64,000 bases of DNA from Alphaproteobacteria bacterium (GCA_965276005.1 OZ254962.1:2676991-2740990); one strand, 5' to 3'; positions 1 to 25,000 are shown, numbered from the stretch's first letter. Made by a program: numbers and translations. The notes: a model not told the origin generated them from the sequence alone.

Positions 1-497
1 AGACTGTTGTCGACAACCAGAACCCCGCCGATGGGCAAATGGGCGATGGCGTGTTCTACATAAAATGTATACGATTGTTTGTCCGCATCGATAAAGATGA
101 AGTCGAACTGTTGCTGTTGCATTTGCTCCAGCATGGTTTGTGTGGCGTCCCCTTGTACGATGGTGATGGTATTGGTACAGGGGTGGGCGTCAAATGAATC
201 TTTGGCAAGTTCCACATAGCGGCCGTCCCACTCCAAGCAAGTAACCGCTGCCTGTGGTGCCCCTTCGCACATGCACAGGGTGGCATAGCCGAAAAACATA
301 CCCACTTCGAGAATGTTTTTTGGTTGCTTTAAGGCGGTCAAAGTGCGTAAAAACCCACCGGACAGGCGATTTGAACTCATGTCCGCTTGCGGTGAAAATG
401 CCTGCGACATTTTCAGCACATTTTGTAAAAATGGACTCTCAAAAAATGTGTGGTTGTGGCAATATGTGTCGATAAGTGGGTCTGTAATGTTTGTCAT
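1..497 (-). CDS. O-methyltransferase (Methyltransf_3 / caffeoyl-CoA OMT-like), 3' part runs off the window
   Basis: Manual translation from ATG at 497: MTNITDPLIDTY...KNILEVGMFFGYATLCM...FDFIFIDADKQSY...GGVLVVDNS. Has the SAM motif EVGxxxGY and the FIDADK motif. Absent from the ORF track because the stop is outside the window. Confidence 0.85.
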   Translation of the reverse strand, partial: MTNITDPLIDTYCHNHTFFESPFLQNVLKMSQAFSPQADMSSNRLSGGFLRTLTALKQPKNILEVGMFFGYATLCMCEGAPQAAVTCLEWDGRYVELAKDSFDAHPCTNTITIVQGDATQTMLEQMQQQQFDFIFIDADKQSYTFYVEHAIAHLPIGGVLVVDNS

Positions 498-511
498 GTC
501 GATGTGTATAT

Positions 512-678
512 TGTACTGGTTGATTTTTGTTTGTGGCTTGTTTTGTGAATCTAGGGGGCTTTGCCCCCCGTGCGTTTAATGTGGATTTTACCATGCTTTG
601 CATGACAAAATACCACACGCACTTCCCCCCGATCGAGCACCACATCGGGCTTACGCCCTCAGCGGTTGCAACCGCTTT
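512..678. repeat. REP/MITE-like multi-hairpin element, copy 1
   Basis: ~165 bp shared with 4402-4828 and (inverted) 10305-10472. Contains GGGGGC-TTT-GCCCCC, CATGC-TTT-GCATG, CCCGAT..ATCGGG, GGGC-TTAC-GCCC and the palindrome AGCGGTTGCAACCGCT. Confidence 0.9.
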
Positions 679-764
679 CAGTATACTATACACATATTTT
701 GTTGGTGTTTCAATGGGAATATGCTATAAATATGCCTGTGTGATATAATGTGAAGAGGTGATAC

Positions 765-1655
765 ATGTCGACAACCTATACTCCAGTACCCACCGCTGTG
801 TTTCCCGTTGCGGGTTTAGGCACACGGTTTTTGCCCGCCTCGAAAGTGGTGCCAAAGGAGCTGTTTCCCCTACTCGACAAACCGCTGATCGAATATGCGG
901 TGGAGGAGGCACTGGCGGCGGGGGCAACGGATTTTATTTTTGTCATCTCCCCTACCAAAACCAGTATTGTCAAGCATTTCGAAGACGATCCAAATTTGCT
1001 GTATATGTTGGCAGAAAAACAACAACAGTATATTATCGATAAGGTAAAATGTAAAATCCCCGGTGCCATACACACGGTGGTACAATCCCAAGCCTTAGGC
1101 TTGGGACATGCCATATACTGTGCCAAAGACTTGGTCGGCGATCGCCCGTTTCATGTGCTGTTGCCGGATGATGTGGTGTTGTCTGATGTGGCGTGTCAAA
1201 AGCAGCTGGCAGATGTGTTTGATAAAACTCGATCGGGGGTGGTTGCGGTGGAATATGTGGCGTGGGAATCTGTACACAAATACGGGGTACTGGAGTGCCG
1301 AGATACGGACGATAGTGTCATACCTGTTAAGGGCTTTGTCGAAAAACCCGCCCGGGTAGATGCCCCCAGTAATCTGTCGATAATCGGGCGGTATATTTTT
1401 ACACCGCAGATTTTTACCCACTTGCAACAGGGAAAAACGGGGGCAGGGGGCGAAATACAAATCACCGATGCTATGGCGGATATGTTGGGCGAGCAAGATT
1501 TTTACGGGGTAAAGTTTCAAGGGCAGCGGTTCGACTGTGGATCAAAAGCAGGATTGTTAGAAGCCCAAATTGCCGCCGCCAGCAAAGATGCGGACTTACA
1601 GCATACCTTACCCGATATATTGGCAAAATACAGCAGTGGAAGAGGACACAGATGA
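765..1655 (+). CDS. galU: UTP--glucose-1-phosphate uridylyltransferase
   Basis: AVFPVAGLGTRFLPASKVVPKE, VEKP, GAGGEIQITDA and FDCGSK motifs. Confidence 0.95.
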   Translation: MSTTYTPVPTAVFPVAGLGTRFLPASKVVPKELFPLLDKPLIEYAVEEALAAGATDFIFVISPTKTSIVKHFEDDPNLLYMLAEKQQQYIIDKVKCKIPGAIHTVVQSQALGLGHAIYCAKDLVGDRPFHVLLPDDVVLSDVACQKQLADVFDKTRSGVVAVEYVAWESVHKYGVLECRDTDDSVIPVKGFVEKPARVDAPSNLSIIGRYIFTPQIFTHLQQGKTGAGGEIQITDAMADMLGEQDFYGVKFQGQRFDCGSKAGLLEAQIAAASKDADLQHTLPDILAKYSSGRGHR

Positions 1656-2968
1656 AAATTGCAATGATTGGTACTGGATATGTGGGTTTGGTGACGGGCG
1701 TGTGTTTGTCGCACTTGGGGCATACGGTAGCTTGTATCGATGCGGATGTGGCAAAAATCGACAATATCAAACGGGGTGTTATACCTATTTATGAAACCGG
1801 TCTAAATCGTTTGTTGCACCAATGTGTACAACAAGGGCGGTTGTCTTTCACAAACGATTTACAACAGGGTATCAAAGGCTGTGCCGCTGTGTTTATTTGC
1901 GTAGGCACCCCGTCCCGATCCGATGGCAGTGCCGATGTATCGGCGGTGTTTGCGGTTGCCGAACGCATCGCTTGCATTGCCGATGATACTATTGTCGTGG
2001 TCGATAAATCCACCGTGCCAGTGGGTACCGCCGATAAAGTCCGCACCCTTATGCAGCAGACAAACCCAGATTTAAAATTTTCTGTGGTGTCGAACCCAGA
2101 ATTTTTACGAGAGGGGGTTGCCATCGAGGATTTTCTCAATCCCGACCGTATTGTCATCGGGGCGGATGATGCACTGGGCAGTACGGTTATGCAGGAAGTA
2201 TATGCCCCGTTTACCCATCGAGATGTACCGTTAATGATGACGGATACCAAATCAGCGGAAATGATAAAATATGCCACCAATGCGTTTTTGGCAACGAAAA
2301 TTACTTTTGCCAATGACTTAGCGGATCTGTGTGAAAAAGTCGGCAGCAACATCACCGATGTGACCAAAGGGTTTGGTATGGATACCCGTATTGGCTACAA
2401 GTTTTTACACCCGGGACCCGGCTATGGGGGCAGTTGTTTCCCCAAAGACACTCGAGCGTTGGTGCATACTTCCAATACACACGGGGTCGACATGGACATT
2501 ATCCGCACGGTGGTAAAAGTCAATGAACACCGCAAAGCCCGCATGGCGGATAAGATTTTACAGCTGATGGGCTCTGATAACAAAAAAGCCACCATATTAG
2601 GTTTGACCTTTAAATCGAACACAGACGATATACGGGAATCGCCGTCTTTAACCATCATCCCCAAATTGTTACAGGCGGGGGTACACATATCCGCATACGA
2701 TCCAGAAGGCATGCACAATGCCAAACAAAACCTAGCGGACATCGATTTTTGTAACAGTGTCGAAGACGCTTGTACAAACACAGATGCGATGGTTATTTTG
2801 ACAGAATGGAGTGCTTTTTCTGTGTTAGATTTTGCTACACTGGCACGGGTAGTGCGGACAAAAACCATTATCGATTTACGCAATTTATACGATTTGGAGC
2901 GTATGCAACAGATTCACAACACACACGGCTTTACATACCACAGTATAGGACGGCAGTCGATTGTGTAA
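1652..2968 (+). CDS. ugd: UDP-glucose/GDP-mannose family 6-dehydrogenase
   Basis: GTGYVG Rossmann motif, KSTVPVG, SNPEFLREG, GYGGSCFPKD catalytic Cys; ATGA overlap with galU. Confidence 0.95.
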   Translation: MKIAMIGTGYVGLVTGVCLSHLGHTVACIDADVAKIDNIKRGVIPIYETGLNRLLHQCVQQGRLSFTNDLQQGIKGCAAVFICVGTPSRSDGSADVSAVFAVAERIACIADDTIVVVDKSTVPVGTADKVRTLMQQTNPDLKFSVVSNPEFLREGVAIEDFLNPDRIVIGADDALGSTVMQEVYAPFTHRDVPLMMTDTKSAEMIKYATNAFLATKITFANDLADLCEKVGSNITDVTKGFGMDTRIGYKFLHPGPGYGGSCFPKDTRALVHTSNTHGVDMDIIRTVVKVNEHRKARMADKILQLMGSDNKKATILGLTFKSNTDDIRESPSLTIIPKLLQAGVHISAYDPEGMHNAKQNLADIDFCNSVEDACTNTDAMVILTEWSAFSVLDFATLARVVRTKTIIDLRNLYDLERMQQIHNTHGFTYHSIGRQSIV

Positions 2969-2995
2969 AAAATACAGAAAGGGCACACCCATACC

Positions 2996-4393
2996 ATGAC
3001 ACCACCCCATTCCCATAGCTTTAATCCCACTATTTTACGACAATACGATATTCGTGGTATTGTGGGCGATACTTTACACGGAGCGGATGCGTACGCTATT
3101 GGCCGTTCATTAGCCACCATTGCTAGCGAACGGCACACCTCCATACGGGCGGTGGTGGGCTATGATGGGCGGGTGTCATCGCCGACACTTGCCAAATATC
3201 TGATAGACGGCTTTACCGATGCCGGCGTGGCGGTGGTCGATGTGGGCTTGTGTCCTACCCCGCTGTTGTATATGGCAGGCAAAGAGTTAAACGCCCCTAT
3301 TGCCGTCATGATAACCGGCAGCCATAACCCGTCCGCATACAATGGCTTTAAAATTATGCTGCAGGGGGCATCGTTTTTTGGTGAAGATATTCAAAAACTG
3401 GGCGATATTGCCAAACGGGGCGATTGGGTATGCCTGCAAAACCCCGCCCCCCCTGTGTACGAACAACAGGATTTTTCTGCATTTTATGTACAACGCATTT
3501 TACAAGATTATAACCCTAAAGCCGTATATACGGTGGTGTGGGATACGGGCAATGGGGCGATGGGGGCGGTGTTACGCCAGCTGACCGACAAAATGGCGGG
3601 GACGCATATTATCATTAACGAAGCCGTAGACGGCACCTTTCCCAACCACCACCCTGACCCAACGGTGGAGAGCAACCTTGAGCAGCTCAAAACCGCTGTA
3701 CAGCGGCACAAGGCGGATATGGGCATTGCTTTTGACGGCGATGGCGATAGGGTGGGGATTGTCGATGCTATGGGGCGGGTGCTGTGGGGGGATGAAATTT
3801 TATGCGTGTTGGTCGAGCCCGTGCTTGCCAAATATCCTAAGGCAAAAATATTGTCTGATGTAAAAGCATCCGATGTGTTGTTCGAACACATTGCTCGTAT
3901 GGGAGGGGTACCGGTGATGGTGGCAACGGGGCATTCGATTGTAAAATCTCGTATGATCGAAGAACAATCGCCATTAGCGGGGGAAATGAGTGCCCATATA
4001 TTCTTTGCCGATGGTTTTTATGGACATGACGATGCCCTGTATGCGGGGGTGCGGTTTATCAATGCCATTTATGCAGGCGGTATGTCTGTGGCACAGGCAA
4101 AAGACGCCTTGCCGCAAATGGTCAATACTCCAGAAATCCGTATCGACATCGATGAGGACAAAAAATTCCCGCTGATTAGGCAACTGGCACAGCACATGCA
4201 GGACACAGGCACAGAGTACTGCGACATCGACGGCGTACGGGTACGCACAGAAAATGGTTGGTGGCTGTGCCGGGCATCGAACACGCAAAACTGTATCACC
4301 ATGCGGTTTGAGGCAAACACGCAGCAAAATTTACAGGCTATGATACAATCCGTGCAAGATATACTGGCACAGTATGGGGTGAGTCGTTGGTGA
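2996..4393 (+). CDS. Phosphomannomutase/phosphoglucomutase
   Basis: YDIRG, TGSHNP phosphoserine loop, FDGDGDR metal loop, GEMSAH. Confidence 0.95.
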   Translation: MTPPHSHSFNPTILRQYDIRGIVGDTLHGADAYAIGRSLATIASERHTSIRAVVGYDGRVSSPTLAKYLIDGFTDAGVAVVDVGLCPTPLLYMAGKELNAPIAVMITGSHNPSAYNGFKIMLQGASFFGEDIQKLGDIAKRGDWVCLQNPAPPVYEQQDFSAFYVQRILQDYNPKAVYTVVWDTGNGAMGAVLRQLTDKMAGTHIIINEAVDGTFPNHHPDPTVESNLEQLKTAVQRHKADMGIAFDGDGDRVGIVDAMGRVLWGDEILCVLVEPVLAKYPKAKILSDVKASDVLFEHIARMGGVPVMVATGHSIVKSRMIEEQSPLAGEMSAHIFFADGFYGHDDALYAGVRFINAIYAGGMSVAQAKDALPQMVNTPEIRIDIDEDKKFPLIRQLAQHMQDTGTEYCDIDGVRVRTENGWWLCRASNTQNCITMRFEANTQQNLQAMIQSVQDILAQYGVSRW

Positions 4394-4401
4394 GATAGTG
4401 C

Positions 4402-4828
4402 TGTACTGGCTGATTTTTGTTTGTGGCAGGGTTTGTGAGTCTAGGGGGCTTCGCCCCCCGTGCGTTTAATGTGGATTTTACCGTGTTTCGCACGACAAAA
4501 TACCACACGCACTTCCCCCCCGCATCGAGCACCACATCGGGCTTACGCCCTCAGCGGTTGCAACCGGAGTCTAGGGGGCTTCGCCCCCGTGCGTTTAATG
4601 TGGATTTTACCGTGCTTCGCACGACAAAATACCACACGCACTTCCCCCCGCATCGAGCACCACATCGGGCTTACGCCCTCAGCGGTTGCAACCGGAGTCT
4701 AGGGGGCTTCGCCCCCCGTGCGTTTAATGTGGATTTTACCGTGCTTCGCACGACAAAATACCACACGCACTTCCCCCCCGCATCGAGCACCACATCGGGC
4801 TTACGCCCTCAGCGGTTGCAACCGCTTT
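4402..4828. repeat. REP/MITE-like element with its core tandemly triplicated
   Basis: Core GAGTCTAG...GCAACCG repeated at 4437-4566, 4567-4694 and 4695-4824; lies between convergent genes. Confidence 0.95.
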
Positions 4829-5860
4829 TTATACACATACGGTTTTTCCAGTGTGCATTGATGTTTCTATGGCTTGTATAACCCGCATGACTTTTAAACC
4901 GTCTGTAGCGGTGATTTTTGGTGGTGATGTGCCGGAAATCACATCGGAAAAGTGTTCCATTTGGGTGACCAAGCTGTCTTGATTGTGGGGTATGGTGAGG
5001 GTGTCCGTACTGATGGGGGTATACCAGTTTTTATCGCCTTTGTAATACCATATGCGGTTTTTTGGCAATTCTAGCGACGCCTCTGTTCCCCCGATCATGC
5101 AATATGCGTTTTGCGTGTTGGGATACACCACATTATCGCCGCTGGTCAGCTCCCAACTCCATGGGGCGGGGATGGTGTCGGATATATTTAAAGTCCCCAA
5201 CGCCCCACAGGCAAATGTACACAGCACAACCCCCGTATCGATGGCATCAAAATGGCGATTTTTGTTGCTGCCAATGGCGGTTACGCTGGTAATATCGCCG
5301 ATAAAATAGTGTAGTAAATCTATGTCATGGGGCAGGTTGATATGCAGCGGTCCCCCTTGCGATTGGGTACGCCATATGGCATCGAAATAGGCGTCTTGTT
5401 TGTGTACCCAAAAATGGCAATGCACGGATACAATTCGTCCCAATGCCCCCGCAGAAATACAGTCTTTGGCGGTGCTGACAAGGGGATTATAGCGGCGAAA
5501 ATATCCCGTTAAAACGGGGATATTGTATGTTTCAGATGCCTCGATAATCTGTGCACAATCGCTTATGTCAGGTGCCAACGGCTTTTCCACCAACACCGGC
5601 ACCCCATGCCGTATACACGCCACCGCCCCTTGCACATGCAGAGCGTTGGGCGTTGCCACCACCACCCCATCAGGCTTGACGGTCGTCAGCATGGTTGCCA
5701 CATCGGAAAACGCCGGTACATTATATTTTTCGGCAATACGGTTTATATCGGGTCGCACATCGACAACCGCACACAACACCGCATTGCTGGCACCGCTTAA
5801 CGCTCGCACATGCCAGCCCCCGACCAATCCAACACCAACAACAGCGATCTTACTGTGCAT
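4829..5860 (-). CDS. Gfo/Idh/MocA family oxidoreductase
   Basis: IAVVGVGLVG, VVATPNALH, VLVEKP, GGPLHINLPHDID. Confidence 0.9.
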   Translation of the reverse strand: MHSKIAVVGVGLVGGWHVRALSGASNAVLCAVVDVRPDINRIAEKYNVPAFSDVATMLTTVKPDGVVVATPNALHVQGAVACIRHGVPVLVEKPLAPDISDCAQIIEASETYNIPVLTGYFRRYNPLVSTAKDCISAGALGRIVSVHCHFWVHKQDAYFDAIWRTQSQGGPLHINLPHDIDLLHYFIGDITSVTAIGSNKNRHFDAIDTGVVLCTFACGALGTLNISDTIPAPWSWELTSGDNVVYPNTQNAYCMIGGTEASLELPKNRIWYYKGDKNWYTPISTDTLTIPHNQDSLVTQMEHFSDVISGTSPPKITATDGLKVMRVIQAIETSMHTGKTVCV

Positions 5861-5864
5861 TTTC

Positions 5865-7406
5865 TTAGCTATAATGTTTGTGATAGTCCATAGCGATACC
5901 GTAATCTGGATCGTCGTCCAGTACTTCGATAGCCGATCCGGATTTTTTTAACAGGTGGCGACAATCGTTCGACAAGTGCCGCAGCTTTAAGGTCTTGCCC
6001 GCCCGCTTGTAGCGGTCATACAAAGCATCGATAGCTTCGATGGCACTGTGGTCTGCGACACGGGAAAATTTAAAGTCTACAATCACCGTTTGCGGATCCT
6101 CAGACGGGGTGAAAATATCTCGAAACGGGGCAACGGAACCAAAGAACAACACGCCCCGTACCGCATATATTTTGTCCCCCCTGTCGTTTAGGGTGTACGA
6201 TGCCCATACGCTGCTGGCGGTTTTCCAAGCAAACGCTAGGGCGGAGACGATAACTCCGACAATAACCGCAATGGCAAGGTCGGTGGCAACGGTTACCACC
6301 GTTACAAGCACCACCACCAACGCATCGACCAATGGAATACGATGTAAAATCTTTAACGACGACCACGCAAAAGTTCCCACAACCACCATAAACATCACCC
6401 CGGTTAAGGCGGCAAGCGGTATCATCTCAATAAGTGGCGATGCCCACAAAATAAACGCTAGCAATATCAAAGCCGCACATATACCAGAAGCCCTGCCCCG
6501 CCCGCCGGATTGGATGTTAATCATCGATTGCCCAATCATCGCACAGCCCCCCATACCGCCAAACAAGCCAGTAACCGTGTTGGCAACCCCTTGACCGATA
6601 CACTCACGGGCGGTGTGTCCTTTGGTTTCGGTGATTTCGTCAATCAAAGACAAGGTCAGCATACTTTCAATCAAGCCGATTAAGGCAAGGATAACCGCAT
6701 AGGGTAAAATAATGCGAAAAGTGTCGAAACTAAACGGCACTACGGGAATATGCAGGGTAGGCAACCCCCCAGAAATAGACGCCATATCGCCAACCGTACG
6801 AACATCTAGCCCCAGTGCCAGTGCCACCGCAAAAGTTATCACAATCCCCATCAGCGGTGCTGGTAACGCTTTAGTGATTTTCGGAAACACAAAGATAATA
6901 CACATAGTTAGGGCGGTTAATCCAAGCATCGTATACATCTGTATACCCTGCATCCACACCCATGTGCCGTCTGCGGATTGTACTTTAAACTGTCCCAGTT
7001 GGGCAAGGAAAATCACGATCGCCAAGCCGTTTACAAAACCCAGCATCACCGGATGGGGCACAAGGCGGATAAATTTCCCCAGTTTAAACACGCCGGCAGC
7101 AATTTGTAAAACCCCCATTAACACCACCGCCGCAAACAGGTACTCGACTCCGTGTTCGGCAACAAGGCTGACCATGACCACCGCTAATGCCCCCGCCGCC
7201 CCGGAAATCATCCCCGGGCGACCGCCAATAGCAGCGGTGATAAGCCCCACCAAAAACGCCGCATACAATCCCACCAACGGATCGACCCCAGCAACAAAGG
7301 CAAAGGCAACCGCCTCAGGGACTAAGGCAAGGGCGACGGTCAATCCAGACAAAAAATCCAAGCGTAAATTGTGCGTCTGTGTTTTACTGATAATGGTTGT
7401 TAGCAT
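5865..7406 (-). CDS. SulP family inorganic anion transporter with C-terminal STAS domain
   Basis: DFLSGLTVALALVPEAVAFA, GMISGAAGA, GGMGGCAMIGQS, STAS-like VDFKFSRVADHSAIEA. Start moved to ATG 7406, which has an AAGGA RBS. Confidence 0.92.
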   Translation of the reverse strand: MLTTIISKTQTHNLRLDFLSGLTVALALVPEAVAFAFVAGVDPLVGLYAAFLVGLITAAIGGRPGMISGAAGALAVVMVSLVAEHGVEYLFAAVVLMGVLQIAAGVFKLGKFIRLVPHPVMLGFVNGLAIVIFLAQLGQFKVQSADGTWVWMQGIQMYTMLGLTALTMCIIFVFPKITKALPAPLMGIVITFAVALALGLDVRTVGDMASISGGLPTLHIPVVPFSFDTFRIILPYAVILALIGLIESMLTLSLIDEITETKGHTARECIGQGVANTVTGLFGGMGGCAMIGQSMINIQSGGRGRASGICAALILLAFILWASPLIEMIPLAALTGVMFMVVVGTFAWSSLKILHRIPLVDALVVVLVTVVTVATDLAIAVIVGVIVSALAFAWKTASSVWASYTLNDRGDKIYAVRGVLFFGSVAPFRDIFTPSEDPQTVIVDFKFSRVADHSAIEAIDALYDRYKRAGKTLKLRHLSNDCRHLLKKSGSAIEVLDDDPDYGIAMDYHKHYS

Positions 7407-7551
7407 GACATTTTCCTTAGTAAAAATTATTGTTAGGTGTTTCATTATAAGCGAAAATCTTGTATTTTGCAAGTATTCATATTGCTTTTTTCTGTAATGT
7501 ACGATACATATAGGGGGGTAATAAATCAAAACTAAGGAAAAAATAAAAATT

Positions 7552-9228
7552 ATGTCATATCAATTTGTATATGGAATGCACGGTTTAACCAAGACTTATC
7601 CGGGTGGTAAAACGGTGCTGAGTAATATTAACTTGCAATTTTTGCCAGGGGCAAAAATTGGCGTGTTGGGATATAATGGGGCGGGCAAGTCGACACTGTT
7701 AAAAATTATGGCGGGGCTAGACACGGAATATCAAGGCGAGGCTTGGGTTGCCGATGGTGTTAAGGTGGGGTACCTTGCCCAAGAGCCGCAACTAGATGCG
7801 ACCAAGACCGTTGCCGAAAATGTGATGGACGGTTTGGGCGAAATAAAGCAGGTTGTAGATGCTTTTAATGCTATTTCCACACAGCTAGCGGAAGTAACAG
7901 ACACCGATGAAATGATGGCGTTGATTGAAAAACAAGGGCAATATCAAGAAAAAATTGACGCTGCCGATGCGTGGGATTTAGACCGGGTTGTCGACATTGC
8001 TATGGACGCTTTGCGGTGTCCCGATGGCGATATGGCGGTTACCCATTTATCTGGGGGGGAAGTGCGGCGGGTGGCGTTGTGTCGCTTGTTGCTGAGCAAG
8101 CCGGATATGTTGTTGCTGGACGAACCGACCAACCATTTGGATGCCGAATCTGTGGCGTGGCTGCAGCGGTTTTTGGCGGATTATACGGGTACGGTGGTGA
8201 TGGTGACACACGACCGCTATTTTTTGGACAATGTGACTGGTTGGATTTTGGAACTCGATCGGGGACATGGTATTCCATATGAAGGCAATTATACAGCGTG
8301 GCTGGAGCAAAAATCTATCCGCTTGCAACAAGAGGGCAAAGCTGAAGACCAACGGGCAAAAACCATCGCCCAAGAAAAACAGTGGGTTGGGCAATCGCCA
8401 AAAGCCCGCCAAGCCAAAAACAAAGCCCGCATTCAAGCCTATGAACAATTGTTAAAACAACAAACAGAAGCCCGCACCGTTACCAGTACCCTTACTATTC
8501 CCGCCGGCGGCAGATTGGGCGATGTGGTGATTAAGGCGGATGCGGTGGCAAAATCGTTTGGCGATAAATTGTTGTATGACAACATGGCATTTAACTTGCC
8601 TCGTGGTGGCATTATCGGGGTTATCGGTGCCAATGGGGCGGGTAAAACCACTTTGTTTAAAATGATAACCGGCATTGAAACCCCCGATTCGGGACACTTT
8701 ACTGTAGGCGAAACTGTACACTTGGGATATGTGGATCAATCCCGGGATTCGCTAAGCGATACAAACACGGTATGGCAAGAAATTTCTGACGGTTTGGATA
8801 CGGTGGCACTGGGCAAACGGACATTGTCGTCCCGGGCGTATGTGGGGTCGTTTAACTTCAAAGGGGCGGATCAACAAAAGAAAGTGGGGCAGCTGTCAGG
8901 CGGTGAACGCAACCGAGTACACCTTGCCAAGATGTTAAAACAAGGGGCAAATGTGTTGCTGTTAGACGAACCCACCAATGATTTGGATGTGGATACCTTG
9001 CGGGCGTTAGAGGAAGCGTTGCTAAACTTTGCCGGCTGTGCGGTGATTATTTCCCACGACCGTTGGTTTCTCGACCGGGTGGCAACGCATATACTGGCGT
9101 TCGAGGGCAATTCACAAGTGGTGTGGTTCGAAGGCAATTACCAAGATTATGAAACCGACCGCAAACGGCGTTTGGGGGATACCGTTTTAAACCCCACCCG
9201 CATTAAATATAAACCTGTAACCCGATAA
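7552..9228 (+). CDS. ettA: Energy-dependent translational throttle protein (ABC-F)
   Basis: Two ABC domains ([21 protein letters not shown] twice), no transmembrane segments, conserved C-terminus PTRIKYKPV. Confidence 0.93.
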
Positions 9229-9238
9229 GGAGAACACT

Positions 9239-9529
9239 ATGCAATATACATCAGAAACAACACAACCAGAAAGCGAACAACACACCACTCCCGCATTGAC
9301 CCCAACTGGGCAAAGACTACGGGCGTATATCGACCGTATTGAGAGGCTGGAAGAAAGTAAAAAAGACATTATGGAAGATATTAAAGAAGTATACGCCGAA
9401 GCCAAAGGCGACGGGTTTGATAGTAAAGCCATGCGTAAAATTGTTGCCATTCGCAAAAAAGATTCTGCCGAAGTTGCCGAAGAAGAGGCGATTTTGGACA
9501 CTTACAAAGCGGCACTAGGCATGGCGTAA
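9239..9529 (+). CDS. gapR: GapR/DUF2312 nucleoid-associated DNA-binding protein
   Basis: [38 protein letters not shown]...[10 protein letters not shown] matches the family pattern. Confidence 0.88.
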
Positions 9530-9545
9530 CCGGAGGAGAAAAACC

Positions 9546-10277
9546 ATGACAAAAACCATATTTATTACAGGTGCCACAGGTGGTGTTGGCGGGGCAACCG
9601 CACAGCTGTTCGCATCACACGGATACCGTGTGGCGGTGGGGTACCATTCGAATGTCGATAAAGCCAACGCCCTTGTGCAAGACTTGCCCGGCGGTGGGCA
9701 TATGGCGGTACAGTGTACGGTTAATAAAACAGAAACCATCGAACAAGCCATTGCCCATATTACCCAAACTTTTGGCACATTGGATGTGTTGGTGAACAAT
9801 GGCGGTTCGACAAAATTTATTGCCCATGCGGATTTGGACGCTTTAACCGATGAAGTTATCGATGATATTTTTGCCATACATGTACGGGGAACATTGGCAT
9901 GTGTCCGCCATGCGGTACCGATTATGAACACAGACGGGGTGATTGTCAATATTTCGTCGATTGCCGCTGAATCGGGAATGGGCAGCAATATTGCGTACTG
10001 TGCGGCAAAAGCGGCAATCAATACGATTATTAAATCGTTGGCACGGTGTTTGGCACCGAAAATACGGGTTATTGGCGTCGCACCCGGGTTGTTAAATACC
10101 GGCTTTGTCAAAGGTGCCGGATCCGATGATTTCTTTATCGCACAGGCGGCAGCAACCCCCCTACAACGGCTTGGCACCGTCGAGGAGATAGCACAGGCGA
10201 TTTATGCGGGTGTCGAACACATGCCTTTTACCACAGGTAGAGTTCTTACCATAGATGGCGGACGGTTGTTGGTATAG
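9546..10277 (+). CDS. Short-chain dehydrogenase/reductase
   Basis: TGATGGVG, LVNNGG, NISS, YCAAK. Confidence 0.92.
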   Translation: MTKTIFITGATGGVGGATAQLFASHGYRVAVGYHSNVDKANALVQDLPGGGHMAVQCTVNKTETIEQAIAHITQTFGTLDVLVNNGGSTKFIAHADLDALTDEVIDDIFAIHVRGTLACVRHAVPIMNTDGVIVNISSIAAESGMGSNIAYCAAKAAINTIIKSLARCLAPKIRVIGVAPGLLNTGFVKGAGSDDFFIAQAAATPLQRLGTVEEIAQAIYAGVEHMPFTTGRVLTIDGGRLLV

Positions 10278-10304
10278 GAAAGTTAATGTTTATGGGGTGT
10301 ATAA

Positions 10305-10472
10305 AAAGCGGTTGCAACCGCTGAGGGCTTTAGCCCGATGTGGTGCTCGATCATGGGGGGAAGTGCGTGTGGTATTTTGTCATGCGAAGCATGGTAAAAT
10401 CCACATTAAACGCACGGGGGGCGAAGCCCTCTAGACTCATGCACAAGCCACAAACAAAAATCAACCCGTACA
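10305..10472. repeat. REP/MITE-like element, inverted copy
   Basis: Reverse complement of 512-678; lies between the convergent SDR and SnoaL-like genes. Confidence 0.9.
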
Positions 10473-10501
10473 ATATATTAAATCATTTTATGCAATTTTG
10501 G

Positions 10502-11647
10502 CTATAGTACATCTGGGTTTTTTCTTATGGCGTTTAGGTGAATTTGTTTCCATATGGCAAGTGTGTCGAACAGTATCCACTCTTCGCATATTCTGTTGTG
10601 TATCACTCGGAATTGTGATATGCCCATGATGTATAGGGGGGCTTGGGTGCCTGTGCCGAACATGTGGGCGGTTTCGTGGGTGGCGGTTATCGACCACCGC
10701 ACATGTACAAAGGTCTCGTTTTCGCCGGCGTTTGATGCGGTGGTTTGGCTGTGTTCGATGACTAAATCCGCATTCGACAACCCCCCATATATATCGGTTA
10801 AAAAAGTTTTCAAATGGCGACTGCCAATGATTTCTCGCCCGCCACAGCCGTGTACTTGCACATTATAGGTATAATAATCGTCGATAAGAGCAAAATACTT
10901 GTTACGCCACACATCGTTAAACATGTTGAGCACCAATGCGGCGGGGTTGTTATTTTCTGGACGACCGATGACGGGGGGTAGGGCAGATGGGGTGTCGATG
11001 CGATGGCTGGTTTCAGATTCCCACCAATGGGTAACATTGTTTTTATAATCGGCAACCGCCATATCCCATGCGACTTGTTTTATGTCCAGCCCCAATTGTT
11101 GCACATATGCCCCGTTATCCCGTACCAGCCACTCCTTGATGATAAGATTTTCTTTGCACAGGCAATCGGCAATGGTGTATATGTCGATACGGTTGCCCGA
11201 TGCGGGTCCGAAAGTGCTGTCTTGGCTGTTGGTCATCAGCGTGCGGATAAGGTGAGACGACAGATACCCATCGGTTGCGTTGCCGTCCCAAATAATGTTG
11301 ACGCTGTACAGCTCACGGTCGGGAAAGGCTTGTAAGGTTTGGGTGGTGTTTTCGATGACTCCCTGTACCCGTTCTGCATAGCCAAGCGGTGTGTAAATTT
11401 CCCCTTGTGCGGCATAGTGGGTGGCAATCATACCGACATTTTTGCGTTCCCAAATATCGTGCGTACAGCGTAAAATATAATCGACAATATTGCCATACTG
11501 TGGGTCGAACCCGTGCATCGGCATGTCCCTATCCCGTGTATGTCCGGCGTTTAAGTCCGCATATGTATAGTAGCGACCGTGTAATTCTCCAGCAGCGGAA
11601 ATATTGTCCGCCCGGGCGGGGTTATAGGGGGTTATTGTCATAGTCAT
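10502..11647 (-). CDS. SnoaL-like / ester cyclase (tandem NTF2-like domains)
   Basis: IVDYILRCTHDIWE; AFPDRELY; VHVRWSITATH...GISQFRVIHNRICEEWILFD. Confidence 0.7.
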   Translation of the reverse strand: MTMTITPYNPARADNISAAGELHGRYYTYADLNAGHTRDRDMPMHGFDPQYGNIVDYILRCTHDIWERKNVGMIATHYAAQGEIYTPLGYAERVQGVIENTTQTLQAFPDRELYSVNIIWDGNATDGYLSSHLIRTLMTNSQDSTFGPASGNRIDIYTIADCLCKENLIIKEWLVRDNGAYVQQLGLDIKQVAWDMAVADYKNNVTHWWESETSHRIDTPSALPPVIGRPENNNPAALVLNMFNDVWRNKYFALIDDYYTYNVQVHGCGGREIIGSRHLKTFLTDIYGGLSNADLVIEHSQTTASNAGENETFVHVRWSITATHETAHMFGTGTQAPLYIMGISQFRVIHNRICEEWILFDTLAIWKQIHLNAIRKNPDVL

Positions 11648-11656
11648 ACGGGCTCC

Positions 11657-12745
11657 TTACTGTTGTACATTTAACAATTTGTTCTTAAAAGCTATGTCCT
11701 CAGGGGTATTGGCGTGGTTTTTACGGGGCACATCTGGTATGGCGAACACCGTTTTATGATAAATTTTGTCGATCATATCGAACACATCGATCCCCAATTG
11801 GTAAAATATGTCGATCACATCCAGCAACACCCAATTTTGGGCGATACGACCATTTATCATATACCAAAAATCGGCGACTCGCATGTCGACCACTTTACCT
11901 GTGGGGGCAAGCCCTAACCACCCCGATCCCATATGGGTACCAATGACATTTTTCCACCCCACTATACAGGCGATGTTGTCTTTGCTGATTTGGGCGTGCC
12001 CAAAGCCATAATCCCGATCGGGAAAAGTATTCAAAAATGCTCGACGGTACATATCGAATCCATCTATGCCATAAAAAGTGCCAATACCCGATGGTCCATA
12101 CCATATCATATCGTCCGCCCAAATAGAGGTTTGCGTATCTGTGCGGGTGCTTCTGGCGTGTAGTAAATCGCTCAGCATGTGCATAACTCGTGTTTGTGTT
12201 TGGGCGGTTACATCTGGATTGGCGTCCCCATATAGCAACCCGTCTTGGTTGCGGGGACAGACCGTGTCGTCGTTACTGCCCATACTAGGGGGCAGGGGAC
12301 AGACGCCCGCCCGTATCATTAGCCCGATGTAATCCATCAATTTATATACCATAACGATTTTACCGTTTTCGATGTGGTAAAAATCCATAAACCGCACATG
12401 GTTTAAAGTGCGGGTGGCGGGAACGGTATATAAGGAATGTTCGAACTGTCCCTGATACATACCGCAAGCGGATACCCAGTATGTGTTTTCTAAGGCACAG
12501 ATACCGTCTATTTCCACGCCGGGGACTCGCTTTAAATTGGTAAATGCGGTTCGCAACGGCAGCCAAAATTTTTCTGCCAATTGTTCGACGGTGTTACATT
12601 TTTCTACCGGGCGAAATGCCAAACAGGTAAAGTTATCGGCAAAAAACGGCCGTATGGCATCGGCTAAGCTGTCGACAGGGGCGGTAAGGGCGGCGTGTAT
12701 ATAATTGTTTACCACCGCAAACTGTGTAGATTTTTGTATGTGCAT
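11657..12745 (-). CDS. SnoaL-like / ester cyclase (tandem NTF2-like domains)
   Basis: WYGPSGIGT, FLNTFPDR, GTHMGSGWLGLAPTGKVVDMRVADFW...IAQNWVLLD. Start set at 12745 with an AAAGGA RBS. Confidence 0.75.
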   Translation of the reverse strand: MHIQKSTQFAVVNNYIHAALTAPVDSLADAIRPFFADNFTCLAFRPVEKCNTVEQLAEKFWLPLRTAFTNLKRVPGVEIDGICALENTYWVSACGMYQGQFEHSLYTVPATRTLNHVRFMDFYHIENGKIVMVYKLMDYIGLMIRAGVCPLPPSMGSNDDTVCPRNQDGLLYGDANPDVTAQTQTRVMHMLSDLLHARSTRTDTQTSIWADDMIWYGPSGIGTFYGIDGFDMYRRAFLNTFPDRDYGFGHAQISKDNIACIVGWKNVIGTHMGSGWLGLAPTGKVVDMRVADFWYMINGRIAQNWVLLDVIDIFYQLGIDVFDMIDKIYHKTVFAIPDVPRKNHANTPEDIAFKNKLLNVQQ

Positions 12746-22037: not shown

Positions 22038-25000
22038 ATGACGATGACTAAATCTGTAAAATTTGCTTTATTGGCGGTATCTGCGTTAGGTACTGGCGTA
22101 TTTGCTGGTGGCTTGCCACAAGGTGGCGTGGTACAGGAGGGCTCTGCTAGTATCACATATGCTGGGGGGGGGGGGGGGTATATTTCCCTCGATATAAATC
22201 AGCGATCGGATAAGGCGGTTATCGATTGGCATAGTTTTTCTGTAGGTAAGGGTAACACGGTAAACTTTAACCAACCCAGTAGCGACTCGGCAACTTTGAA
22301 TCGGGTTACGGGGGATTTTACTTCGGAAATTGCTGGACGGATTAACAGTAACGGCAGTGTGTTTTTGGTCAATCCCAATGGCATACGGATTACTGCGGAT
22401 GGTGTTATCGACACGGGCGGTTTTGTTGCCTCGACTCTCGACATCGACAATAATGATTTTTTGAATGGTGAGTATACATTTACGAAAAATGGTAATAGTG
22501 GCGTTGTTTCGAATCGGGGTAGTATTTCGGTCGATGATGGCGGTTTTGTGGCGTTGCTAGGTGGGGCGGTTAAAAACGATGGCATGGTTCGAGCTCTTGT
22601 GGGTAAAGTAGGCTTTGCTGGTGGTGAAAAAATTGTTATGTCGTTTGGCAACAGCGATTTTTTACGGGTCGAAGTGCCTACGGACAAATGGGATACCTTA
22701 ACCGATTCGCAAGGCAATAAAGTTGCGGCTACCCTTGATTTAGGCGGTACCATTGACTCACGGGGTGGATTTATCGATATAACCGTTGCCGATGCCTCCG
22801 ATATTTTGCGACAGACTATTTCGATCGATGGTATTGTATCAGCAAACACTGTGTCTTCCACAGACGGTGTTATATCCATTAGTGGCGGTACAGTGGGGAT
22901 TACCGGCAACGGGCGAATCACTGCTGATGCCGATTATGGCACCGCCGGCACTATTGCCATCGAAGCGGATACCATCGATAGTAGCGGCACGGTTTCGGCT
23001 GTAGCACAAAATGGCACTGGAGGGACGGTTAAAATATCGTTGCAACACGGGGCAAACCTAAACGCTAGTACCCGTTTTGATGTGTCCGGTGGCAACAAGG
23101 GCGGCAGTCTGTCGTTTATTGGTGGTTTAGGCAAACAGGGTACGAAAGTATTAGGTTCTGCGGACTTTAAAGCCGATAGTACGGACGGTAGCGGCGGATA
23201 TGTCGATATTAGTAACAAAGGTGGCTTGGTCGGGCTGTTGTCCGGTACCGTATCCGCATCGGGCAAAACGCAAGGCGGACGGATTCGTCTAGGCGGGGCG
23301 TTTCAAGGGGGCGGGTATGACCCGAAAACCAGCCCACTCGACAAACGCACCCAAGACCTATTTGTTACCCGTTGGGCGGATAATGGCTCCCTTGTTAGTG
23401 CCGGCAAAACTTCGTTAGGCACAGGTGTACGAGTCGATGTTTCATCCGCATCAGGTACAGGCGGCACAGCGATTGTATGGGCAGATCATACCACCAACAA
23501 TTATGCGGCTATCGATGCCACAGGTGCCACTGGGGGCGGAGCGGTGGAAATATCGGGCAAAAAACAGGTCGACAGTTTCGGTTTAAAACGGATTAAGGCA
23601 GGCAACGGGGTTATTTTGCTCGACCCGCAAAATCTGGTTATAGGCAACTGGGGATCCGCAGTGGCACAGGCAAAAAAGATTGCACATGGCGTTAGTGGTG
23701 TTTCATTGAATGATGGAGATGCCTTTGGTAGTAGTGTATCGTTAAGCAGTGATGGGACGAAGTTGGCTGTCGGGGCTGGAGGTGATGACGATGGGGGTAA
23801 AACCAGTAGTGGGGCGGTGTATCTGTACACTGTCGGCGGATCCTCGTGGGGCGAGATAGTAACGCAAGTGGCAAAACTTTCTAATAGCCATGCCAGTGTT
23901 TCTTTGGATAAGAGTGATTGGTTTGGTAGTGGTGGTGTATCGTTAAGCAGTGATGGGACGAAGTTAGCTGTCGGGGTTTACCTTGATGACGATGGAGGTA
24001 ATGGCAAAGGGGCGGTGTATCTGTACACTGTCGGCGGATCCTCGTGGGGCAAGACGGTAACGCAAGCGGCAAAACTTTCTGATAGCCATACCAGTGTTTC
24101 TTTGGATGAGAGTGATTGGTTTGGTAGTGGTGTATCGTTAAGCGGTGATGGGACGAAGTTAGCTGTCGGGGCTGAAGGCGATGACGATGGAGGTAATGGC
24201 AAAGGGGCGGTGTATCTGTACACTGTCGGCGGATTCTCGTGGGGCGAGACGGTAACGCAAGTGGTAAAACTTTCTGATAGCCATACCAGTGTTTCTTTGG
24301 ATAAGAGTGATTGGTTTGGTAGTAGTGTATCGTTAAACGGTGATGGGACGAAGTTAGCTGTCGGAGCTGATGGTGATGACAGTTACAAAGGGGCGGTGTA
24401 TCTGTACATTGTCGGCGGATCCTCGTGGGGCAGTGCGGTAACGCAAGCGGTAAAACTTTCTAATAGTCATGCCAGTGTTTCTTTGGGTAACAACGATTAT
24501 TTTGGTAGTAGTGTATCGTTAAGTGGTGATGGGACGAAGTTAGCTGTCGGGGCGGATGGCGATGACGATGGTGGTTTTAATCGAGGGGCGGTGTATCTGT
24601 ACATTGTCGGCGGTTCTGGTGCCACATGGGGCAGTACGGTAACGCAAGCGGCAAAACTTTCTCATAAACATGCCAGTGTTTCCTTGGATGATTCGGATTA
24701 TTTTGGTGTTGGTGTATCGCTAAGTGGTGATGGGACGAAGTTGGCTGTCGGAGCTAAGTGGGATGACGATAGGGGTAGTAACCAACATGCAAATCGAGGG
24801 GCGGTGTATCTGTACACTATTGGTACTGATGCAGACGATTACAAACAACAATTGCAGGATGGAGATGTAACCCTTGTTGCCAGCAACGATATTACTATAA
24901 ACAGGGCTATAAATGCAGATTCAGGCGGTGGCACATTAACCCTAATCGCCGGGCGGTCGATCAAAATTAACGCTGATGTAAAAGTAAATGGCGGGCTTGT

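Follow-up and report, generated by a model that had tools for sequence, protein, structure and literature searches.

Copies of the repeat in the window

The window, a 64,000-nucleotide stretch of an alphaproteobacterial genome (OZ254962.1:2676991-2740990), carries an intergenic, hairpin-rich repeat at three loci within its first 10.5 kb, and their sequences read as originally described (Table 1). The first copy lies between an O-methyltransferase gene (start codon at 497, minus strand) and an NTP-transferase gene (765). BLAST alignment with a complete copy covers 507-678, and the orthologous spacer of a sister genome has no element, with flank homology restarting at ~687. The second copy sits between convergent genes for a phosphoglucomutase (end at 4393) and a GFO/IDH/MocA oxidoreductase (stop codon 4829-4831, minus strand), and its tail, TTTTTATACAC, overlaps the final codons of the oxidoreductase gene. 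In its second core unit, the helices fall at 4574-4588 (H1), 4589-4641 (long hairpin), 4667-4678 (H4) and 4683-4694 (truncated H5). The third copy is complete, with TA on either side (10505-10506 and 10273-10274). Two convergent genes, an SDR gene (9546-10277, plus strand) and a SnoaL-like gene (10502-11647, minus strand), take their stop codons from its terminal CTA (10275-10277, which reads TAG on the plus strand) and TAG (10502-10504, minus strand). Across 10273-10506, the complete element exactly fills the gap between these genes, an arrangement that suggests either insertion into a TA at or beside stop codons, or selection in favour of copies that leave the gene ends intact.

Table 1. Copies of the element in the window and their parts (positions counted from the first nucleotide of the window)
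Feature	Start	End	Strand	Description
Copy 1	507	686	+	Single-unit copy: head, one core and H5 palindrome; without recognisable outer inverted repeats
Copy 1, core unit	547	673	+	H1, long O/M/H2 hairpin, H4 and start of H5; DNA fold -31.3 kcal/mol, z -6.1
Copy 2	4397	4836	+	Head (4402-4436), three tandem core units and tail; without recognisable outer repeats
Copy 2, core unit 1	4437	4565	+	From Tandem Repeats Finder and unit alignment
Copy 2, core unit 2	4566	4694	+	From dot-bracket folds
Copy 2, core unit 3	4695	4823	+	Continues into the complete terminal palindrome
Complete 16-bp palindrome	4811	4831	+	AGCGGTTGCAACCGCT followed by TTTTT; intrinsic-terminator-like (terminator scan)
Copy 3	10275	10504	-	Complete 230-bp element; begins TAGCCAAAATTGCATAAAATGATT, ends CTA
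Copy 3, core unit	10310	10438	-	From unit alignment
Copy 3, left terminal repeat	10481	10504	-	Homologous to the terminus of the sister-genome copies and to the IS630-like remnant end

The original prediction had placed an element of ~165 bp at these loci. Its positions and sequence stand, but its ends were drawn too narrowly, the 165 bp being the inner part of a longer element. We found the true ends by aligning copies together with their flanks, whereupon conservation extended past the earlier limits. A complete copy measures ~230 bp, with TAG...CTA inverted termini and TA flanks (for example, window 10275-10504), and comprises four parts. The left terminus and a head of ~75 bp, homologous to the transposase-distal end of the parent insertion sequence (IS) with its last codons included, are followed by one to five copies of a 127-129-bp core with five hairpins, by the palindrome AGCGGTTGCAACCGCT with a T-run, and by a right terminus that repeats the left one in inverted orientation. 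The predicted lack of a coding region was borne out: there is no open reading frame of significance, and a 154-aa frame at 4417-4881 merely reads through the repeats. Elsewhere in the window, a tandem repeat of 195-bp period (23724-24782) lies inside a giant gene for a TPS-domain/FG-GAP exoprotein; at least 20 paralogues of the TPS N-terminal domain occur in the genome, where they dominate the self-similarity map.

Copy number and distribution

The genome holding the window (G000) is a single contig of 2,965,790 bp with 45.4% G+C. A genome-wide BLASTN search, with a 167-bp query, returned 105 segments representing ~64 loci and ~100 core units, the many copies foreseen for a non-autonomous mobile element. 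Full-length core units number 74 and occupy 48 loci, of which 32 are single, 9 double, 5 triple, 1 quadruple and 1 quintuple. In public DNA runs with this genome, the depth of the repeat, summed over contigs, is ~50-100 times that of unique flanks, in agreement with the BLAST copy count. The sister genome (G001), an uncultured alphaproteobacterial MAG of the same genus (OZ246977.1, 2,630,883 bp), has ~70 loci, nearly all with a single unit. It was the sole carrier among 40 relatives examined, the 39 others being without the element. When a degenerate core pattern was run against one genome per species from 185,579 species, it matched the sister genome only; a pattern built on the G000 core was too specific and gave no match in the same collection. 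Contigs of an older, unrelated sample from 2018 (run X5, organism B), compared with window positions 3900-5400, carry related copies with different flanks, for example after GTATAAAATGATTGTGTACGC, and a third lineage with this element family therefore probably exists.

Shorter and longer variants were seen alongside the standard form. Short forms in G000 have head and tail joined directly through repeated CCCCCCG or GGGC motifs and lie at 542436-542522, 543605-543704, 608093-608178, 666020-666108, 1888486-1888541 and 2744912-2744984; they may be either deletion derivatives or an ancestral coreless form. Many G001 cores carry an 18-bp insert, AGCTTCTCTGTACATTCT, after hairpin 1 (units at 80925, 132573 and 1638465, for example), and many also have one or two additional CACCCCnnnTTGCACCCC repeats, so that the core itself is modular in the sister species.

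Termini and insertion at TA

In G000, the element starts with TAG(Y)C...ATAAAATGATTG, and the same sequence is found inverted at the far end. The outer ATAAAATGATTG motifs were also considered as promoters and set aside for their poor hexamer fit. The terminal inverted repeats of G001 copies read TAGTCAAT...ATTGACTA, and the youngest of these copies, 98-100% identical to one another, read TA/TAGTCAATCCnGTATAAAATGATTCACC ... GCAACCGCATT TAGTCAATCAAATTAAATTTAATTGACTA/TA. A TA directly precedes 68 of 76 left ends in G001 and 16 of 20 ends in G000, against a genome-wide TA dinucleotide frequency of 0.078. Comparison of the two genomes yielded a filled and an empty version of the same site. The filled site (G001:1338498-1338756) reads gttaaaata(TA)TAGTCAATT...ATTGACTA(TA)ttttgtatac and the empty one (G000, ~497786) gttaaaata(TA)ttttgtatac, a base-exact duplication of TA. 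In a second pair, a three-unit G001 array set against G000:1694104, the duplication is at most ATATA and is compatible with TA. Only the first pair is exact to the base because spacers elsewhere have diverged too far.

Both flanks of 24 loci in G000 and 14 in G001 could be mapped onto the other genome. At all 38, the element is present in one species and the orthologous site is empty in the other; not one insertion site is shared, and the element has therefore moved since the two species split. It inserted by cut-and-paste into TA dinucleotides, with duplication of the TA. Members of the IS630 family duplicate TA on insertion, and the IS630/Tc1-mariner family is recognised by inverted termini together with TA duplication (PMC2170065). 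Small size (<300-500 bp), absence of coding capacity, multiple copies, terminal inverted repeats, TA duplication and paired filled and empty sites, all of them seen here, are together the profile of a miniature inverted-repeat transposable element (MITE).

Many copies, the first two of the window among them, are without one or both outer repeats. About ten 'headless' loci have the first bases of the core as their exact start, and a class of G001 copies ends in GCAACCGCATTA/TA without the inverted right end. Some G001 copies have long direct target duplications in place of a plain TA, with one canonical terminus missing; the duplications measure 22 bp (ATATATAAAAATTGGTATAAAA), 14 bp (ATTATACAACAATA) and ~7 bp, and the copies lie at 1563081-1563331 (L132), 2627526-2627727 (L185) and 1612052-1612253 (L134). 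In vitro, an IS630-family transposase yields one-ended insertions more often than any other product (PMC2170065). We conjecture that copies with long duplications, or with no inverted right end, are repaired one-ended or otherwise aberrant insertions.

Remnants of a probable parent insertion sequence

A profile search for DDE_3 (IS630-type) transposases gave one match, in G001 only. Positions 1469315-1469542 encode the last 76 aa of such an enzyme (PF13358, 51 bits, E 1.9e-13), the upstream part having been removed by the insertion of an IS3-family element. That interrupting element (G001:1467959-1469273, L127) has ~10 copies that are 99.7-100% identical, and it appears to be the currently active IS of the sister genome.

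Read inward, the outer end of the transposase remnant is TA/TAGTCAAATAAAAATAAAATGATTCAATATAAACAG... (shorter stretch, TA/TAGTCAAATAAAAATAAAATGATTCA...), and the left end of the MITE is TA/TAGTCAATCCTGTATAAAATGATTCACCATAATTATAC... (shorter stretch, TA/TAGTCAATCCTGTATAAAATGATTCA...). The remnant end (G001:1469315-1469548) and the MITE terminus agree in all nine terminal bases and then in a 13-base identical block, with gapped similarity continuing for ~70 nt inward beyond the terminus. A second, more decayed remnant at ~492950-493100 of G001 has the same kind of end. The match indicates that the MITE head is the 3′ end of an old transposase gene together with its terminal repeat, and the element's descent from an IS630-family IS is well supported.

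Neither genome has an intact cognate transposase: G001 retains the two truncated remnants, and G000 has no DDE_3 match. A metagenome search for an intact parent enzyme found only distant IS630 relatives, the best of them 53-54% identical to the remnant, and pairs of terminal repeats 0.3-5 kb apart, sought as signs of an autonomous copy, proved to be pairs of MITEs only. For this reason, we infer from knowledge of the family that an IS630-type DDE transposase, supplied in trans, would have inserted the element at TA. With the transposase surviving only as two remnants in G001 and absent from G000, the family is probably immobile, or nearly so, today. In G001, 22 units have a twin of ≥98% identity elsewhere in the genome, which suggests that the enzyme was lost recently there.

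Other mobile elements of the two genomes were set aside as mobilisers. IS5-type elements of G000 and G001 end in CTAGGCGGTAG... or GGAACATCTG..., unlike the MITE termini, and the GGGGCTG... ends of an IS1595/IS1016-like element are likewise unlike them. The latter is a compact element of ~720 bp with GGGGCTGGCATAGATAACTAAC terminal repeats, found at G000:1925956-1926680 and in about five more copies, and is unrelated to the MITE. An IS110-family or bridge-RNA-bearing element was rejected as well: PF01548 (IS110) gave no match in G001 and, in G000, only two weak fragments that are not linked to the repeats.

Core hairpins and compensatory change

Each unit folds into four separate structures, namely H1, a long imperfect hairpin, H4 and the terminal palindrome H5; the fold contains five helices, matching the predicted count of about five stems. 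H1 is GGGGGC-TTC-GCCCCC. The long hairpin is built from an outer GTGCG/CGCAC stem, a middle TGTGGATTTT/AAAAT(A)CCACA stem and, at its apex, the stem CGTGC-TTC-GCACG (H2); H4 is GGGC-TTAC-GCCC. Folded as DNA or RNA and on either strand, the unit gave z-scores of -3.5 to -6.1, and none of 200 shuffled sequences folded as well.

The stems are maintained by compensatory change. The difference between CATGC/GCATG and CGTGC/GCACG in H2, noticed at the outset, is truly compensatory and is joined by a third allele, CGCAC/GTGCG, and in G001 by TGCAC/GTGCA. At the outer pair of H1, G000 has G-C where G001 has A-T, and a G-C of the middle stem has become T-A in a G001 subfamily. H4 in G001 is unrelated in sequence (GCCAC-TGC-GTGGC or GCGAC-TGC-GTCGC), with the hairpin retained. 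Loops vary while the stem holds, again as predicted: that of GGGC-TTAC-GCCC is also found as TAAA, TATC, TACC and others. The opposite strand does carry GCGAAGC twice per unit (GGGGGCGAAGCCCCC, GTGCGAAGCAC) and the GTAA loop, in the hairpin GGGC-GTAA-GCCC. However, the hairpin loops vary freely (GAA, GGA, AAA and longer), and the GCGAAGC motif itself is therefore not conserved.

We counted pairs in 60 distinct units from both genomes, with helices set by hand since register shifts in H4 had left RNAalifold, run on the two-species alignment, with only part of the structure. Standard pairs made up 97.2% of cells as against 91.9% after shuffling, and 7 of 26 pairs showed change on both sides, with 106 compensatory cells as against 33; none of 500 shuffles reached either value, in a control that ignores the relatedness of units. 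Shifting the partner by 1-3 columns lowered pairing to 30-63%. Among 67 units of G000, 1975 of 2006 cells were Watson-Crick, with 6 G.T and 10 A.C. The compensatory changes mark subfamilies, and the independent events behind them are therefore few.

A strand that acts as RNA usually shows an excess of wobble pairs, and no such excess was present on either strand. Compensatory upkeep is equal on both, so a constraint at the DNA level, or one on both transcripts, fits better than a single functional RNA. One fixed feature is asymmetric and does favour the bottom strand: there, an internal loop conserved as A.C/C.A is read as G.T/T.G, and a 12-bp stem runs without interruption beneath the GAA loop. 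Element propagation, host tolerance and hairpin-templated repair are candidate causes of the upkeep.

Gene context

The elements are intergenic. Taken by element orientation, convergent genes flank 14 loci in G000 and 12 in G001, and divergent genes flank 13 and 8, placing 21 loci together in promoter regions. Tandem genes are co-oriented with the element at 8 and 13 loci (21 together) and opposed to it at 13 and 24 (37 together). A terminator scan flagged H5 with its T-run at 4811-4826 and at 10322-10307, and we found no preferential placement for terminating an upstream gene. Orientation to neighbouring genes is near random, and thus no terminator or RNA function is shown. Several copies touch or run into the ends of genes, and at G000:399830 an array gives the neighbouring gene its last codons and its stop codon. 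The public runs that contain the window behave as low-coverage DNA.

These data bear on the alternative in which the core is a structured module kept by the host, as a terminator, a protector of mRNA 3′ ends or a small RNA, with the transposon a mere vehicle and the compensatory changes a product of selection. Strong covariation of five helices in two species, including a wholly replaced H4 that is still a hairpin, is what this alternative would lead one to expect. The terminator-like score of H5, the enrichment between convergent genes (14 of 48 loci, compared with 15% of spacers), the 12-bp stem made by bottom-strand G.T pairs and the lean of tandem-gene contexts towards bottom-strand sense (37 versus 21) point the same way. 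Against it, divergent promoter regions are occupied as frequently as convergent spacers (13 versus 14), and variable pairs show no wobble asymmetry (6 G.T versus 10 A.C). Rfam cmscan of window positions 1-12000 at E≤1 returned no match, and hence none to the terminators and riboswitches that the original prediction had set against a mobile element. The retention of none of 38 copies at orthologous positions is also unexpected for a regulatory site under host selection. On balance, we regard a host-kept module as unlikely.

Tandem arrays

The reported triplication of a ~130-bp core at 4437-4824 was confirmed by Tandem Repeats Finder, which gave a period of 129, 3.0 copies and 98% matches. The junctions lie where they had been placed, inside the right arm of the 16-bp palindrome, each internal one following GCAACC in AGCGGTTGCAACCGCT. 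The same holds genome-wide: 25 of 26 junctions at 15 G000 loci read GCAACC[A/G][G/A]AGT[C/T]TAGGGGG, and the single array junction in G001, GCAACCATAGTTTAAGGGG, is of the same type. Median identity between units is 97.3% within arrays and 90.6% between loci, and there are multi-unit copies with complete heads and tails. At locus 503918-504553, the head is joined directly to the palindrome, after which come five cores, and in G001 second elements abut GCAACCA. The palindrome AGCGGTTGCAACCGCT is confined to element loci (56 of 56 in G000). As it occurs inside elements only, a stand-alone genomic motif, such as a binding site or uptake sequence, was rejected.

A single ancestral dimer appears to underlie all arrays, given that nearly all have the same junction. 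Under the proposed sequence of events, one such dimer would have formed, it would then have spread by transposition, and units would have been gained or lost locally, by slippage during replication or by unequal exchange. Because the core is a self-contained fold, gain or loss of a unit leaves the ends undisturbed. Such slippage or exchange of an inner module that folds independently is the most likely origin of the arrays, and the boxB module of pneumococcal BOX elements behaves likewise (PMC3049150).

The fixed junction could also mean that the 127-bp core is separately mobile, a site-specific enzyme inserting it after the GCAACC of the palindrome and the element thereby targeting itself. 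The recurrence of the junction in 25 of 26 cases across 15 loci, and in both species, would fit such an enzyme, as would the ~10 loci beginning exactly at the core, the head-palindrome fusion followed by five cores, and the second elements abutting GCAACCA. But no candidate enzyme was found, the IS110 search having yielded two weak G000 fragments and nothing in G001, and no Y1 HUH gene being present in either genome. Multi-unit copies with complete ends show that arrays can spread by ordinary transposition, and the greater identity within arrays than between loci is what local amplification predicts. Nor was a solo core seen in a palindrome outside an element, as the palindrome is absent outside elements. 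We therefore give separate mobility of the core little credence.

A related proposal, which we likewise consider improbable, is that the core is a selected, strand-symmetric DNA-structure module (cruciform or hairpin) that also propagates itself into the GCAACC arm of its own palindrome. If true, the module would aid excision or integration, or recruit a host protein; it would account for the invariant junction in two species, for loci that start at the core and for copies without transposon ends, and it would add a second, hairpin-directed layer of mobility to a DDE-type MITE.

Proposed mobilisation by HUH enzymes

The original prediction took the element for a REP-like repeat mobilised by an HUH/Y1 transposase (RAYT, IS200/IS605 or IS91). 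The profile for Y1 HUH enzymes (PF01797; RAYT/IS200) matched nothing in G000 or G001, nor in two further genomes from the same family (G002 and G003) that were included in the transposase searches, and controls responded in 6 of 14 genomes. A RAYT/TnpA-Y1 gene bounded by the element is thus not present in these four genomes, and by the rule that the prediction itself had laid down, which named the lack of a cognate HUH enzyme among its refuting conditions, the HUH claim fails. PF04986 (IS91 Y2) also gave no match, but its positive control was silent and this search is therefore uninformative. That a Y1 or Y2 transposase of REP/REPIN or IS200/IS605 type reads GCGAAGC-type single-stranded hairpins, moves the element and builds the arrays is, although the hairpins are real and very stable, the bottom strand of each unit does carry two GCGAAGC motifs, the junctions occupy one fixed position within the palindrome and many copies are without inverted ends, largely refuted and in our estimation very improbable: the Y1 enzyme is missing, the motif is not conserved, the terminus shares homology with a DDE_3 IS end, and complete copies have inverted termini with an exact TA duplication, which to our knowledge HUH elements do not make.

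Comparison with known elements

Taking the evidence as a whole, we consider it likely that the repeat is an IS630/Tc1-mariner-derived MITE that inserted by TA cut-and-paste and whose hairpin core was amplified locally in tandem. An element of this kind, a MITE and bacterial junk-like mobile DNA, is already known; the family itself is lineage-restricted.

The precedent for an IS630-related MITE is RUP, the repeat unit of pneumococcus (PMC2229807), which is small, non-coding and intergenic, has ~100 copies and IS630-family-like terminal repeats, and inserts at TA with TA duplication (PMC2229807, PMC3049150). The assignment here follows the same logic, from similarity of terminal inverted repeats together with TA, and the likeness is one of architecture and not of membership in the RUP sequence family. 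RUP, a relative of IS630-Spn1, is a plain unit of 107 bp that lacks an amplified inner module, and the genomes with RUP also carry its parent IS intact; the present element measures ~230 bp, has a 127-bp five-hairpin core repeated up to fivefold, and has parent remnants in the sister genome only.

BOX elements of Streptococcus have the structure boxA-boxB(n)-boxC, in which the inner module folds on its own and varies in tandem number without disturbing the rest (PMC3049150). The two share a modular design, with end modules around a tandem inner module, and this is an analogy of working and not of membership. They differ in that boxB is ~45 nt, whereas the core here is 127-129 nt with five stems, in that the ends of BOX resemble ISSpn2 and not IS630, and in host phylum.

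The Correia/NEMIS elements of Neisseria show TA duplication, TATAG termini, internal length variants, locations near gene ends and highly base-paired transcripts (PMC2229807). Our element resembles them in TA duplication, in termini beginning TATAG, in internal length variants and in its frequent placement at gene ends. However, the 24-26-bp Correia terminal repeat is unrelated to it in sequence, and Correia elements, which occur in Neisseria only, lack both a tandem inner module and an identified parent IS.

With REP/BIME and REPIN repeats, the element has in common that it is palindromic, intergenic and clustered, with stems kept by compensatory change. REPs are single palindromes of 20-40 bp, mobilised as inverted doublets by a REP-flanked Y1 RAYT gene. 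Here, in contrast, the HUH enzyme was sought and is absent while inverted termini and TA duplication are present, and the element is for these reasons not of REP/REPIN or IS200/IS605 type.

Significance

Bacterial MITEs rarely have an identifiable parent IS, and RUP has long been cited as the exception. The element described here is another MITE whose parent IS can be named, and an otherwise enigmatic-looking structured repeat thereby gets an identity. The family makes up ~0.5% of two uncultured alphaproteobacterial genomes, short-read assemblies break at each copy, and the arrays are likely to be length-variable markers between strains. Neighbouring genes also take stop codons and C-terminal codons from the element. 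The strand-symmetric upkeep of its stems bears on what constrains hairpins in selfish DNA. In combining RUP-like ends with BOX-like modularity, the family indicates that an IS630-type element can bear a large self-folding module amplified in tandem.
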